This document shows, piece after piece, positions 57,801 to 63,800 of a DNA stretch of 64,000 bases. Every line of letters starts with the position of its first letter. The first letter of the stretch is position 1. Origin of the DNA: an uncultured Verrucomicrobiota bacterium (lineage in GTDB: Bacteria; Verrucomicrobiota; Kiritimatiellia; CAIQIC01; Lenti-01); contig CALKWZ010000031.1 in assembly GCA_938003985.1 (NCBI GenBank), forward strand, positions 4,173 through 68,172, in the 5' to 3' direction. Position numbers: made by a program.

Positions 57801-60800
57801 GCGGCCTCGAGCGCGGCGTCGTCGATGCCGGAATGCCGGCTCTGCGGACACCAGAAGACGTCGTCGAGCCCGCCGGTGATGGGGTGGCCCGGCACGAGGC
57901 TGCGCGTGGGATAGACCCCGAACACCTTCTGCGGATACATCTTCTTCTCGATGCCGAGGTACTTCGCCAGCGCGAGCCCGCCCCAGCAGATGCCGAGGAG
58001 GCAGGTGCCGGACGCCCGCGCGACGTCGATGATCCCGCACAGTTCCTTCCAGTAGGTCACGGTTTCCCACGGCAGTTCCTCGACCGGCGCGCCGGTCACG
58101 ATCAGGCCGTCGAGGGAGGCCACCGATTGCGCCCAGTCGTAGGGCACGTAGTGCCGGTCGAGGTGGGCGTGGTCGGAACTCTTGTAGTCGTGCGTCCGCA
58201 GCCGGATCCAGATGGGCACGATCTGGAGGATGCTGCGGCCCATCGGCGCGAGGAGGTTGAATTCGTAGTCCTCCGCGTGGGGCATGATGTTGAGGATGCC
58301 GATGCGCAGCGGACGGATATCCTGGTGCTCGGCGGCCTCTTCGCTCAGCCACGCGACGTGGTTGCGGTCGAACAGCGGCTTGAGCCGGTGGTTGGGCGAC
58401 AATCGAATGGTCACGGTCGGTTCCTCACAAGCAAATCATCCTGCCACCGGGCGCCCGCGGCTGTCCATCCTAGAAGTAGAGATCGCGCTCGCCGGCCACG
58501 ATGCGCCGGTAGTTTGCCTCGAACGCGGGCCAGATCTTCGGCTGGGTGCGGCGGGTTTCGTCGAGTTCCTTTTGCAGCAGCGCCGCGCCGACGGCCTGGG
58601 TTTCGGGCGTGGCGAAGTCGTCGAGCCATTCCTTGAAGGTCAGGATGGCGTTGAGCTTGCAGAACTTGCCTTCGGCGCCGCTGCGCAGGAGGTCCATGAT
58701 GCACTTGCCGGTGCGCCCGCAGCGGTAGCCCGCGGTGCAGAAGCTGGTGATGCAGCCCGCCGCGGCCCATTCGCGGACGCACTCGTCGAGGCCGCGCGGA
58801 TCGCCCAGCAGGAACTGCTGGCGCTCGCCCTTCTGCTTCTCCTGCCCGTCGGCGTAGGCGCCCACGCCGACGTTGGAGGCGGCGTCCATCTGCGTCACGC
58901 CCAGCGGCAGCAGGCGCCGGCGCATGGCGGGCGTCTCGCGCGCGGTGATGATCAGCCCCGCGTACGGCACCGCCAGCCGCGCCAGGACCACGAGGCGCTC
59001 GAAATCGTCGTCGGACACGCGCCACTTCGGCTGGTCCACGAAGGGGGTGTTGACGGCGGGTTCGAGGCGCGGGAACGACAGCGTGTGCGGGCCGATGCCG
59101 CAGAACCGCTCCATTTCCAGGGCGTGCGCCTGCTGGCCCAGCAGCTCGAAGCGCCAGTCGGAAAGCCCGTAGAGCGCGCCGATGCCGTTGTCGTCGATGC
59201 CCGCCTCCTGGGCGCGGTGCATGGCCGTCAGCCGCCAGCGGAAATCGCTTTTGACGGTCCCCGCGGGATGCAGCTGGGCGTAGGCGCGCCGGTCGTAGGT
59301 CTCCTGGAACACCTGGAAGGTGCCCAGCCCGCATTGCTTCAAGGTTTTCAGTTCCGCCACGCGCATCGGCGCGGCGTTGACGTTCACGCGGCGGATCTGG
59401 CCGACGCCCCGGCGCGTCGGCACCTTCACGGAATAGACGGCGCGGATGCTCTCGGCGATGTAGTCCACGTCCGTGTCCGGATGCTCGCCGTAGACGACGA
59501 TCAGGCGCTTGTGGCCCAGCTGGCCGGCCAGCGCCTCGGTCTCGGCGCGGACTCCGGCCATGTCCAGCACGCGGCGTTCCACGGCGGGATTCGAGCGGCG
59601 CAGGCCGCAGTAGGCGCAGTCGTTCACGCATTTGCTGCCGAGATAGAGCGGCGCGAAGGTCACGATGCGGTTGTCGTAGACCTTGCGCTTGACGGCGCCC
59701 GCCGCCGCGCGCATCTCGGCCCAGAGTTCCGGATCGCGCACGCGCAGCAGCGTCGCCAGCTCCGCCAGCGTCAGCGTCTGGATCGCGAGCGCCTTGGCGA
59801 CGATCTCCCGCACCTGCGCCGTTTCCGGCGCGCCGGTTTCCGCCAGCAGGCGGTGGATCTCGGCGTCGGGAATGAAATCGGCCCCGCCGGTGCCCAGATA
59901 CTTGTCGATTTCCGCCGGGACGATGCGCGCGCGCGCCCAATCTTTCTTTTCTTCCAGCAACATGGTTCCAACCTGGCTTTCCGGCCCCGGTTTCCGGGGG
60001 GCCGATCCCGCGAACGCGCCGCAATCCACGAGGTAAAACGCTTTGGGCGGAATCGCAGGAACCATACACCCCGGCGGCCGGTTTCTCAACTGCGCTCTTC
60101 GCGGCCCCGGCGCGGCGCGGTTTTCCTTGCCGAAGCCCGCGCCGCCGCCTATCTTCTCTCGTTTAAATACCTACCGAAGGAGCCCGTCCCCGCCATGAGC
60201 GAATCCACCGACAAATCCGTCAGTTCCCTGCGCACCTTGTTTCTGATCCTGCTGCCCCTGCTGGGCATCGGGCTCGTGATCGCCGTCATTTTCGCCACCC
60301 AGGCCAAGAAAAAAGCCGTCGTCACCGTGGTCGTCGGCGCGGACGGGACCGGCGCCGCCGCCATCAACACCGGCGAGGTCATCGACGCCACCGGGGCGGC
60401 GGGCTACGGCCTCGTGCCCCGGCTGGGCTACCGCTACCAGGTGTTCGTGGACGACGAAAGCGACGACCGCTCGTCCGGCATCGCCAAGATCGGCGGCCTC
60501 GCCACGTTCATTCCCGACGCCCGCCGCGGCCAGACCGCCATCGTGGACGTCACCCGCGTGCGCGAGCGCGTCGTGGACGCCGTCCTCGTCAAGGTGGTTT
60601 CCCAGGTCGATCTGCCGCCCAAGGCGCCGCGCGCCGCTTTCGTGCCCCCGGCCGGCGATCCGGCCGTCGAGGGCGCCGAACTCGACGTGGTCATTTCCGA
60701 AGCGTCGTCCAAGAATCCCGAGACGGAAGGCGTGGCCAAGATCGGCGGCCTGGTCGTTTTCGTCAACGGCGTGACGACGATCGGCGAACGCGTCAACGTG

Positions 60801-63800
60801 CGCATCGTCGAACGCCGCGAACGGCTGGCCTTCGCCGAACCCACGGGCAAGCCGGCCGGCACCGGCCCCCTGCCCATGATCGCCTCGAGCCGCGCGCCGC
60901 GCGCCGCCTACGTGCCGCCGGCGGGCGATCCGGTCGTCGCGGGCGCGGAACTGGACGTCGTCATCGCCGAGGAATCCGAAAAGAATCCCGGCCTCGAAGG
61001 CATCGCCAAGGTCGGCGGCCTGGTCGTCGCCGTCAAGGGCGCGACGACCGTCGGCGAGCGCGTCAACGTGCGCATCGTGGACCGCAAGGAGCGCATCGCT
61101 TTCGCCGAGCCCACCGGCCAGCCCGCCGGCACCGGCCCCCTGCCCGTCATCGAATCCAGCCGCCCGGCGCGCGCGCCGCGCCCGGCCTTCGTGCCTCCCG
61201 CCGGCGATCCGGTCGTCGCGGGCGCGGAACTGGACGTCGTCATCGCCGAACAATCCGAAAAGAATCCCGGCCTCGAAGGCATCGCCAAGGTCGGCGGCCT
61301 GGTCGTCGCCGTCAAGGGCGCGACGACCGTCGGCGAGCGCGTCAACGTGCGCATCGTGGACCGCAAGGAGCGCATCGCTTTCGCCGAGCCCACCGGCCAG
61401 CCCGCCGGCACCGGCCCCCTGCCCGTCATCGAATCCAGCCGCCCGGCGCGCGCCCCCCGGCCGGCCTTCGTGCCGCGCGCCGGCGATTCCGCCCCGCACG
61501 TGGTGCCCGGCGCCGTGATCTCCGCCACCATCGCCGAGCCGTCCAACAAGAATCCCGAAACCGAAGGCGTCGCCAAGGTCGCGGGCCTCGTCGTGTTCGT
61601 GAAGGGCGCCACGACTCCCGGCCAGACCGTCCACGTCCGCATCACGGACCGCAATCCGCGCGCGGCCAGCGGCGAGGTCACCAGCGACCCCGTCACGGCC
61701 GAAGCCCCGGCCCCGGCCCCGGCCACCCCCGCGCCGGCCGTCGTTCCGGAAGCGCCCGCGGCCCCCGCGGCCCCTTGATCGCAGCCCCCCGCCGAGGAGA
61801 ATCCCATGGCCAAAACCCTCACCAATGAACGCAACCTCCGCCAGCGCCAGGAAGCCATCGCGCGCGATTTGCGCCTGCTGAAACAGATGCGCCTCGTGGA
61901 ATGGGGCGCGGCGGCGCTCTTCGTCGCCGCCGGACTCCTGCTCAAGGCGTTCGGCGTGGAGGCCGCGCCGTTCGTGCTGTTCCTCGGCGGATTCCTCGTC
62001 TTCCTGGCGCTGGGCCACGAAGCCCGCCGCCGCGAACAGCTCGAAGAGCTGGCCGATACCGAACAGATGCGCGGCGCCAAGGAAGCGGTGGCCCGGTTGC
62101 TCGACGACAAGCTCGCCAACGACCACTACGTCCTCAACGACCTGCACCTGAAGGTCGGCCGCGAAAAGTGCTGGATCGACCATCTCGTCGTCGCGCCCTC
62201 GGGCATGTTCGTCATCAACACGATGAACTGGGAAGGCAAGATCGTCGGCGACACCGCCAAGCAGTCCTACGTCTGGAAGATCCGCGCCCCGGACGGCAAA
62301 ATCCGGCCCGCGCGCAATCCGGTGGGCCGGGCCCTGCGCGAACGGCGCATCCTGTGCAACTGGCTCAAGGGCACGAACCTGATCTGGGAGCGCGTTTTTC
62401 CGCTGGTGGTGCTGGCGAATCCGAACGCGGACATCCAGGTGACCAACGCCGGCACGAAGGTGATGACGCCCGAAAAGGCCGTCACGTTCATCAACGATTT
62501 CTGCTTCGAAAAGCCCGTGCTGTCCAACGCCGAGGTCGAAAAGCTGGCCCAGGGCCTGAACGAACACTCCGGCGAGGCCTGAGCGGACCGGAGCGCCCGG
62601 CGTGGCCAAGATCCTCCGCAGCGAAAACAGCCTGCTGAAACGCCAGCTCGCCATCGGGCGCGAATTGTCCCGCGGCGGGGCCATGCGGATTCTGGCGTGG
62701 GCCGCGGCTCTCGTCGTCGCCGGGCTGCTGGGCGCCCATGCCCTCCTGACCCACACGTATCACGGGGCGATTTTCGGCGCGCTGGCGCTGGTGTTCGCCG
62801 CCGGCTACGAGGTCCATCTGCGCGAAATCGCCGTTGAAAGCCGCAATCTCGAAGGCGGGCGCCGCGGGGAGCAGAAAATGGCCGAGCGCCTCGCCGAGCA
62901 GCTCGCCGACGACCACGTGATCCTCAACGACCTCGAACTGCGCGTCGCGCACGAGCGGGCGCAGATCGACCATCTCGTGATCGGGCCGTCCGGCATCTAC
63001 GTGATCGAATCGAAGTTCTGGGCCGGCACGCTTTCCGGCGACGTCCGCGACGCCCAATGGACGCAGAAGAAATCCAACGGCTCCGTCCGGCACGTGAAGA
63101 GCCCGGTCCAGCAGTGCGAGCGCCAGCGGCGCATGTTCATCACCCTGCTGGCCGCCCGGGTGCCCGAGGACCGCATCCACGCCTTGGCGGTGTTCACCCA
63201 CCCCGCGGTGAAGCTGCAGATCGCCAACGGCCAAGGGCGCGCGTTCCACGTCCGCGACGCCATCCGCTTCATCAACGACCGCTGCTTCGAGCCGCCGGTC
63301 CTGACGCCCGCCGCCGCCCTCGAACTGGCCGAACGGATCAACCGCGGCCAGGCTTGAACGGCGCCCGCCGTTCTGCTACACGATGAGCGGGGCCGGGGCG
63401 ACGCCCCCGGCCCGGAGAAAATGCGTTGCCCATGTCCCGTCCAGCCGGCGCCGATGCGTTGCGGATTCCGTTGCGGCGGAAATTCGCGCTGCTGGCCGCC
63501 TATGCGCAGGAGCGCCTGGCCCGCCAGGTGCGGGCGGTGGCGTTCATCACCGCCTATTTGGCCTTGTTCCAGTTGTTCGTGCTGAAAGCGCCGATCGCGG
63601 AGTTCGCCCAGATCGCCTTGGGCATCCTGGCGGTGATCGTCGGGCTGGCGCTGTTCATGGAGGGCCTGTTCCTGGCCATCATGCCGCTGGGCGAGCGCTG
63701 CGGCCTGCGCTTGCCGGCGCGCGTCGGCATCGGCGCGCTGGTGGCCTTCGCGGCGGTGCTGGGCCTCACCGCCACCTACGCGGAACCGGCCATCGGGTTC

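Follow-up and report, generated by a model that had tools for sequence, protein, structure and literature searches.

TRAM domains are regarded as cytoplasmic RNA-binding appendages or as archaeal RNA chaperones, and to our knowledge all characterised representatives act in the cytoplasm. In MiaB, RimO, RumA/RlmD and RlmCD a single TRAM appendage positions tRNA or rRNA for the catalytic domain, and the archaeal TRAM chaperones (TRAM0076/MMP0076, PDB: 1YVC; MM1357, PDB: 1YEZ; PyTRAM, NF053605) are soluble, cytoplasmic, single-domain proteins of about 70 amino acids (aa). ComEA is the membrane-anchored or periplasmic DNA receptor of competence, and in the comE operon of Bacillus its gene precedes comEC. 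NERD domains are widespread, and their function is only now emerging. In Trypanosoma brucei, TbLrRP1/TbLrRP2 comprise a membrane-anchored NERD nuclease and a membrane-anchored partner whose nuclease motifs are dispensable and which was suggested to deliver RNA to the NERD subunit (PMC12702573). In ZwsA (Zowangsin) from Pseudomonas aeruginosa, a NERD endonuclease is joined to a small S4 domain that binds RNA, and the lysine of its ExK motif is required (bioRxiv 10.64898/2026.04.06.716636). The gene described here is located at positions 60195..61778 (+) of a 64,000-nucleotide stretch of DNA, the window (positions 4,173 to 68,172 of contig CALKWZ010000031.1, assembly GCA_938003985.1), from an uncultured Verrucomicrobiota bacterium of the Kiritimatiellia. 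The gene coordinates include the stop codon at 61776-61778, and the translation is a membrane-anchored protein of 527 aa. It consists of a transmembrane (TM) anchor, five tandem TRAM units and a Pro/Ala-rich tail, and two NERD genes follow it. With a probability of roughly one half, we read this protein as the subunit that binds nucleic acid in a membrane-bound nuclease module encoded by three genes, for a TRAM array, a dead NERD and an active NERD. What we say about function is derived from the identity of the domains, their conserved residues and the linkage of the genes.

The Pfam TRAM model (PF01938) matched the whole protein in five stretches (E=1.4e-32, 111.8 bits). Scanned alone, all five units lay above the gathering cut-off of 21 bits, with scores of 25.9-35.3 bits: the divergent TRAM1 (residues 73-133; 60411..60593; 25.9 bits), TRAM2 (residues 157-218; 60663..60848; 35.3 bits), TRAM3 (residues 247-308; 60933..61118; 29.3 bits), TRAM4 (residues 340-401; 61212..61397; 29.0 bits) and TRAM5 (residues 436-497; 61500..61685; 34.6 bits), all on the + strand. 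Further matches were obtained with the NCBIfam model PyTRAM (NF053605) and with a model of the C-terminal TRAM of archaeal aIF2-beta, and a weak one with TIGR00479 (rumA). PyTRAM equivalogs score above 85 bits with a single domain of ~60-70 aa, whereas the 108.1 bits of the window protein are the sum of five stretches. Since a single unit cannot reach 85 bits and the 527-aa architecture is that of a membrane protein, the window protein is no stand-alone PyTRAM chaperone. TRAM was its sole domain by the Pfam and NCBIfam profiles; these showed no PIN domain, and Pfam gave no helix-hairpin-helix domain of the ComEA type.

Repeat 3 was modelled together with its linkers by AlphaFold2 from 53 repeat sequences, and the model contains five strands (predicted local distance difference test, pLDDT, 80.5). 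Among PDB entries its best Foldseek match was MMP0076/TRAM0076 (1YVC; rank 1, 39% identity), with further matches to the TRAM domains of MiaB, RlmCD, RimO and RumA and to MM1357 (1YEZ); the top entries were 1YVC, 7MJY, 5ZQ0, 1YEZ, 4JC0, 2BH2 and 1UWV. The TRAM domains of MiaB, RimO, RlmCD and apo-RumA have the same fold, with root mean square deviations of 1.1-2.2 Å over 56-67 aligned columns, and a profile of the repeats found 1YVC and 1YEZ among the PDB sequences at E ~5e-8. The archaeal chaperones are thus the best matches in both sequence and fold, and the five-stranded barrel is common to both. In contrast to these single-domain proteins, however, three to six units stand here behind a TM anchor in a bacterial, NERD-linked protein. 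The domain assignment of an earlier note on this DNA, five TRAM units behind an anchor and before a Pro/Ala-rich tail, is borne out by the score of every unit and by the match of the predicted barrel with the TRAM folds of both MiaB and RumA. RNA unfolding by TRAM0076 requires the residues R35, F39, F42, K62, F63 and F65 (PMC6705878). The equivalents of R35, F42, K62 and F65 in the middle repeats are K/R, mostly F, R and F, respectively. Judged from these residues, the TRAM binding face retains its basic part and roughly half of its aromatic one, and nucleic-acid binding by the array is putative, read from domain identity and conserved residues. Weak matches of the TRAM repeats, in sequence (E=0.03) and in fold, were also observed with the long extension of the Chlamydomonas chloroplast ribosomal protein uS2c (PDB chains 28jw_b and 9tvu_b); this extension matches in more than one stretch and may likewise contain TRAM-like barrels in tandem.

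A word-indexed search yielded 170 homologs (at least 170 database proteins), in all of which TRAM is the only substantial domain. Every homolog carrying a name originates from an uncultured Kiritimatiellia, Verrucomicrobiota or 'Opitutae' genome. The database label is solely the automatic 'TRAM domain-containing protein', and no labelled homolog has a differing domain assignment. The mean column identity of this family, hereafter the long family, is 61% in an alignment of 46 sequences and 67% in one of 12 sequences. Scanning one genome per species gave 30 loci, all in metagenome-assembled genomes, and an exhaustive HMMER search of 1.84 billion representatives only 103 clusters at E <1e-3. A sister family, with 30-40% identity and likewise from metagenome-assembled genomes of Kiritimatiellia/Verrucomicrobiota, comprises proteins of ~300 aa in which a TM helix and an acidic spacer precede three TRAM domains. 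TRAM1 of the window protein and the first TRAM of the sister family are orthologs (local score 161 vs S1 of P0131), and TRAM2-5 are all derived from the third TRAM type of the sister family. The earlier note had considered the architecture undescribed; this holds insofar as no paper was found on tandem or membrane-anchored TRAM arrays, but the protein is not unique, being one of a family of at least 170 with a three-TRAM sister family.

Downstream of the TRAM gene, at a distance of 27 nt, lies the gene of a 258-aa NERD protein (NERD1; 61806..62582, +; Pfam NERD E=1.2e-15, 58.4 bits) and, a further 19 nt downstream of it, that of a 251-aa paralog (NERD2; 62602..63357, +; E=8.6e-26, 91.1 bits); the Pfam NERD (PF08378) cut-off is 22.1 bits. 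The two proteins are ~35% identical to each other; in both, the N-terminal helix is basic and two helices form a membrane hairpin. With ~5 K+R on each outer flank of the hairpin and ~1 in its loop, the NERD domains are predicted as cytoplasmic. NERD2 matches the profile and keeps the catalytic residues GE...IDH...ESK (D..ESK) in 24/24 orthologs. NERD1 matches the profile but lacks the catalytic E...D...ExK set: its ExK position is NTM in the window and variable in 25/25 orthologs, and the Glu of GE is lost. From these residues NERD1 is read as a pseudo-nuclease and NERD2 as an active nuclease of the PD-(D/E)xK type, a pair that is natural material for studying how NERD nucleases work. The order TRAM, NERD1, NERD2, with gaps of ~16-40 nt, is present in 27 of 27 long-family loci whose sequence continues downstream; the remaining seven stop at a contig edge. 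These loci are often flanked by gpsA-metA-radical SAM on one side and an RpiB-SHMT fusion on the other; in more distant genomes the flanks differ and the trio stays intact. A promoter and terminator scan of the + strand gave nothing over the shuffled background and no terminator between the three genes. Among PDB chains no solved relative of NERD2 was found by sequence. A PADLOC-DB 2.0 scan of the three proteins gave no hit for the TRAM protein and no system-level match; the NERD proteins matched only weakly, hitting the NERD portion of PglW and a 'NERD+UvrD' candidate. The studies of TbLrRP1/2 and ZwsA lend plausibility to a NERD nuclease that works with a non-catalytic, substrate-presenting partner or carries an additional RNA-binding domain.

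In the sister family, a NERD gene is located directly 3' of the TRAM gene in 12 of the 15 loci with downstream DNA. It is single, encodes the active-type motif D..ETK and begins 0-14 nt after the TRAM gene in most loci. Ten of the 15 loci (L035, L038, L041, L042, L049, L050, L052, L070, L071 and L072) carry, between unrelated flanks, the order TRAM, NERD, a ~70-aa gene, a second ~70-aa gene and ComEC, with genes that overlap or abut; L037 contains the first three genes of this operon. The ComEC proteins possess DUF4131 and Competence domains and are ~1,150-1,165 aa long where complete (865-937 aa where the locus ends inside the gene); their genes are at 8141-11635 in L035, 9291-12755 in L070, 9114-12605 in L071 and 8575-12066 in L072. 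The metallo-beta-lactamase domain of ComEC normally supplies the nuclease. In these proteins, the motif HxHxD[HR] is missing, with LILTSPLPERSAGA at its expected place, and Lactamase_B matches lie below the threshold; judged from these residues, the beta-lactamase-like nuclease site appears dead. The two small membrane-protein genes between NERD and ComEC (L035 7735-8163; L070 8834-9316; L071 8729-9133; L072 8160-8591; L042 5593-6031) encode proteins without Pfam match, one of ~66-78 aa with the motif YTQDGVLYLLPCLPFFFVY, the other of ~67-75 aa with AMWRGD..SPIW.SN..YY. At the sister-family locus L036, a gene for a MiaB/RimO-type methylthiotransferase (4370-5836, -; UPF0004, Radical_SAM and TRAM_2) is divergent from the tandem-TRAM gene.

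The orientation of the array relative to the membrane was assessed from the charges flanking the TM helix and from relatives with other N-terminal parts. In the long family, the mean K+R number is 2.74 in the C-terminal vs 1.70 in the N-terminal flank, the C-terminal flank being richer in 89/117 proteins, and the net flank charge difference is +0.55. For the sister family, this difference is -2.17 and negative in 103/127 proteins, which predicts an N-in, C-out topology. The two homologous families give opposite signals, and the positive-inside rule decides for neither orientation. Cys is nearly absent after the TM helix, with 12 in 56,588 residues. Three representatives are ~60% identical to the IDAT-TRAM1-TRAM2 part (window residues 50-313) and carry other N-terminal parts in place of the anchor: a cleavable signal peptide (AFA|R) with ankyrin repeats in P0123, a lipobox (LFGC) with MORN and FGE-sulfatase domains in P0125, and many ankyrin repeats with no visible signal in P0124. 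A search for more signal-peptide or lipobox fusions with the C-terminal part of P0125 gave four proteins, none of this type, and such fusions are hence rare. The C-termini of P0124 and P0125 end in a zinc-ribbon-like tail (CPRC...CSLCGG). From the Lys residues after the TM helix, the earlier note had deduced an array facing the cytoplasm. The charge bias of the long family weakly agrees, but the sister family and the relatives with signal peptide or lipobox indicate the periplasm. In favour of the inside stand the partner NERD domains, which are predicted as cytoplasmic, and the cytoplasmic action of all characterised TRAM domains. For the family as a whole, an outside-facing array is at least as likely as an inside-facing one, and the window protein's own charges lean towards the inside-facing array.

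The best reading of these gene arrangements is a module with a probable ancestral tie to DNA import; because of the sister-family operon, the ancestral substrate would be DNA passing via ComEC. At the cytoplasmic membrane, the multivalent TRAM array would capture nucleic acid that is single-stranded or unfolded. This would most likely be DNA that enters through ComEC or reaches it, and the array would hold it or pass it to the membrane-tethered NERD endonuclease, which would cut it. The dead NERD may be a partner or scaffold of the active one, and the array may act either in the periplasm as a ComEA-like receptor or in the cytoplasm, where it would catch imported strands. In the sister family, NERD may compensate for the dead nuclease site of ComEC. 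In the lineage of the window, the module would have split from comEC, the NERD gene would have been duplicated and one TRAM type amplified. We propose only tentatively that Kiritimatiellia possess a non-canonical DNA-uptake machine in which the tandem-TRAM protein replaces ComEA as DNA receptor or ratchet, the hairpin NERD takes over from the dead metallo-beta-lactamase nuclease of ComEC and the two small membrane proteins are the remaining components. The window module would then be a ComEC-uncoupled offshoot with amplified TRAM and a heterodimer of active and dead NERD in a new membrane nucleic-acid-processing job. The earlier note had envisaged a membrane-tethered, multivalent scaffold that binds nucleic acid. 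The strictly conserved NERD partners and the ComEC link, absent from that note, move the likely role from a free-standing RNA scaffold to a membrane nuclease or DNA-handling module.

Several observations weigh against the nuclease-module reading and its tie to DNA import. By tblastn, neither ComEC nor the small proteins had a match in the 64-kb window or in any long-family locus; as ComEC is not adjacent in the long family, the DNA-import link stems from the sister family, where L036 has no NERD nearby and the NERD of L048 is ~3 kb away. The NERD domain is predicted as cytoplasmic from the K+R at its hairpin flanks, whereas the nuclease domain of ComEC, for which it might substitute, is generally taken to be extracytoplasmic. 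Physical contact of the TRAM protein with the NERD proteins is putative, read from gene linkage. On the binding face, F39 and F63 of TRAM0076 correspond to aliphatic residues in the middle repeats (L and I/M/L/V, respectively). TRAM domains are known as RNA binders. Of the NERD nucleases, two have been studied functionally, and these cleave RNA or have a role in its processing (PMC12702573; bioRxiv 10.64898/2026.04.06.716636). RNA may be the true substrate of the module.

For the ComEC-uncoupled module of the window, RNA is a serious alternative substrate. A cytoplasmic, membrane-tethered and multivalent TRAM protein could bind or chaperone RNA and feed it to a NERD endoribonuclease in a membrane complex of RNA processing or decay, with no role in DNA import. 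This would suit the archaeal RNA-chaperone TRAM proteins as nearest relatives in sequence and fold, the RNA cutting shown or inferred for NERD in TbLrRP2 and ZwsA, the predicted cytoplasmic NERD domains, the K+R-richer C-terminal flank of the long family and the stable housekeeping neighbourhood (gpsA, metA, radical SAM, SHMT). The tight ComEC operon of the sister family indicates DNA, however, and the flank charges of that family predict an array on the outside; the relatives with a signal peptide or lipobox and the near absence of Cys after the TM helix also speak against a cytoplasmic complex, which we regard as rather unlikely.

The same housekeeping context bears on a function in anti-phage defence, in which the TRAM array would sense or capture phage nucleic acid at the membrane and NERD would destroy phage or host nucleic acids. 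NERD occurs in defence proteins, as the weak PADLOC hits recall, ZwsA is a NERD-based defence against RNA phages, and pairs of active and dead paralogs as well as variable repeat numbers are common in defence loci. Yet the module lies in the same chromosomal context by biosynthetic genes in most genomes, appears vertically inherited, is highly conserved at the column identities given above and has neither mobile elements nor defence islands as neighbours. Because of this stable context and the lack of a PADLOC match for the TRAM protein or at system level, a defence role is less likely and is judged improbable. Most improbable is that extracytoplasmic TRAM/OB-like barrels bind a ligand other than nucleic acid, such as anionic or sulfated polysaccharides or parts of the cell envelope, with a regulatory or coincidental NERD linkage. 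Kiritimatiellia degrade sulfated glycans, and the outside-facing charge signature of the sister family, the module fusions P0123 (signal peptide and ankyrin) and P0125 (lipobox and FGE-sulfatase), the Pro-rich linkers and the scarcity of Cys would be in line with this. Against it stand the strict linkage to a nuclease-family protein, the presence of ComEC in the sister family and the retention of the basic and aromatic residues of the TRAM0076 RNA face, and we know of no TRAM domain that binds carbohydrates. Read as a membrane-bound nuclease, the conserved TRAM-NERD module provides a testable hypothesis for nucleic-acid binding and cutting at the membrane in a poorly studied phylum, and may reveal a ComEA-independent route of DNA uptake.

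The start of the TRAM gene at ATG 60195 agrees with the N-termini of ~120 homologs, and by direct reading of the sequence a GGAG resembling a ribosome-binding site (60179..60182, +) is located 12 nt upstream. An open reading frame of 1164 aa from 58284 was rejected as upstream read-through of the TRAM gene, the homologs beginning at ATG 60195; antisense and upstream-extended long reading frames over the gene are by-products of the high G+C content. That the TRAM gene itself is an artefact of this kind was rejected on the same ground. Residues 1-13 form a short polar tail with a conserved Arg at its end, followed by a single TM helix (residues 14-35; 60234..60299, +; mean Kyte-Doolittle value 3.05) that is kept across the family and is modelled by AlphaFold2 in the full-length protein as a helix at residues 11-36. 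Directly after it lies a KKK patch (residues 38-40; 60306..60314, +), which a stretch of low model confidence separates from the conserved spacer motif INTGEVIDAT (residues 57-66; 60363..60392, +). This motif packs onto TRAM1 in the model, with pLDDT values of 81-84 over residues 61-80. Its residues N58, G60 and D64 are invariant in both family alignments (12 and 46 sequences), T66 is invariant in one (A1) and at least 90% conserved in the other (A4), and the sister family has V(I/V)DA (VIDA) at this place. The inter-TRAM linkers are Pro-rich, with a disordered middle and conserved ends (AFAEPTGKPAGTxPLP ... PRxxFVPxxGD), and the Pro/Ala-rich C-terminal tail (residues 498-527; 61686..61775, +; pLDDT 53-67) varies in length among homologs. 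The protein contains no Cys and no Trp and has a pI of 6.0. In the full-length AlphaFold2 model, a predicted template modelling score of 0.34 together with barrels at pLDDT ~90 indicates that the five TRAM units are independent, like beads on a string.

At the DNA level, two copies of a 251-bp repeat in units 3 and 4 of the array (60924..61174 and 61203..61453, +) are offset by 279 bp and identical at 249/251 positions, the sole difference being one adjacent GG/AC change that turns Glu into Gln; Tandem Repeats Finder reported a period of 279 with 3.1 copies at 60624-61487. The earlier note had pointed to this near-identity and taken it as a sign of recent duplication or gene conversion with a variable copy number. 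The repeats confirm the former and support the latter, and the number of units does vary: among the best 120 homologs, 65 have five, 40 four, 13 six and two three TRAM units. The homolog P0006 equals the window protein less exactly one 93-aa unit, repeats 3 and 4 being merged, and the difference between P0021 and P0024 is one non-identical unit, lost in register. From these comparisons it follows that the copy number changes via in-register recombination, with the limit that collapse of short-read assemblies could produce the same pattern in near-identical four-unit variants. An assembly artefact as origin of the fifth repeat was rejected, as five-unit relatives are common and the identical 527-aa protein (P0002) is present on four contigs, among them a record of ENA and one of NCBI. 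The protein exemplifies how the repeat number of a binding array can evolve through unequal recombination in register.

Upstream of the TRAM gene and divergent from it, the window encodes a radical SAM protein with a BATS domain (58470-60089, -), similar to HydG/ThiH/BioB, which has 497 aa in public gene calls and 539 aa if the reading frame is opened at a TTG start; it is found at this position in 23 related loci. The only sigma-70-like match of the region (60089-60061) is on the strand of this gene. Farther upstream, at 56457-58414 (-), gpsA (56457-57455) overlaps by 4 nt with the gene of an HTS-family homoserine O-succinyl/acetyltransferase (57452-58414), and in the relative L002 both are called as a single fusion protein of 638 aa. 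About 110 nt after NERD2, a gene for a DUF1538 membrane protein (63471-64000, +; 643 aa in the public record) runs off the window end. Just past this end in many relatives, downstream of the module, lies a gene for a 561-aa protein with LacAB_rpiB (ribose-5-phosphate isomerase B) and SHMT domains (L068 16437-18122, -; also L001 and L002). An Rfam scan of 56000-64000 gave no match.

The TRAM, NERD and ComEC domains are individually already known. No paper was found that describes a membrane tandem-TRAM array, its obligate pairing with NERD, the duplication into active and dead NERD or the ComEC operon of the sister family, nor one joining TRAM with NERD, and no relevant one on ComEC with NERD, ComEC with TRAM or ComEC in Kiritimatiellia. 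Among known systems, ComEA resembles the tandem-TRAM protein in having an N-terminal TM anchor followed by nucleic-acid-binding domains, a function that is putative for the TRAM array. In the sister family, the likeness extends to a gene upstream of comEC in one operon (10 loci) and to a predicted outside-facing topology. However, TRAM barrels are not helix-hairpin-helix domains, both proteins lack sequence homology and the window gene does not adjoin comEC. YacL-type PIN-TRAM membrane proteins unite a PIN nuclease, TM segments and TRAM in one polypeptide, whereas the window protein has no PIN match and, unlike MiaB, RimO, RumA/RlmD and RlmCD, no enzyme domain. The ribosomal protein bS1, whose S1 domains were among the weaker Foldseek matches, is also a string of small beta-barrels with multivalent binding of single-stranded nucleic acids, but it belongs to another domain family and is soluble and ribosome-associated. 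ZwsA is one soluble multidomain polypeptide from defence contexts, without TRAM and without a membrane anchor. In TbLrRP1/2, finally, the NERD nuclease is likewise bound to membranes together with a partner; in contrast to the module described here, this system is eukaryotic, resides in the endoplasmic reticulum and nuclear envelope, has a DEDDh partner instead of a dead NERD and a TRAM array, and acts on large-subunit rRNA.

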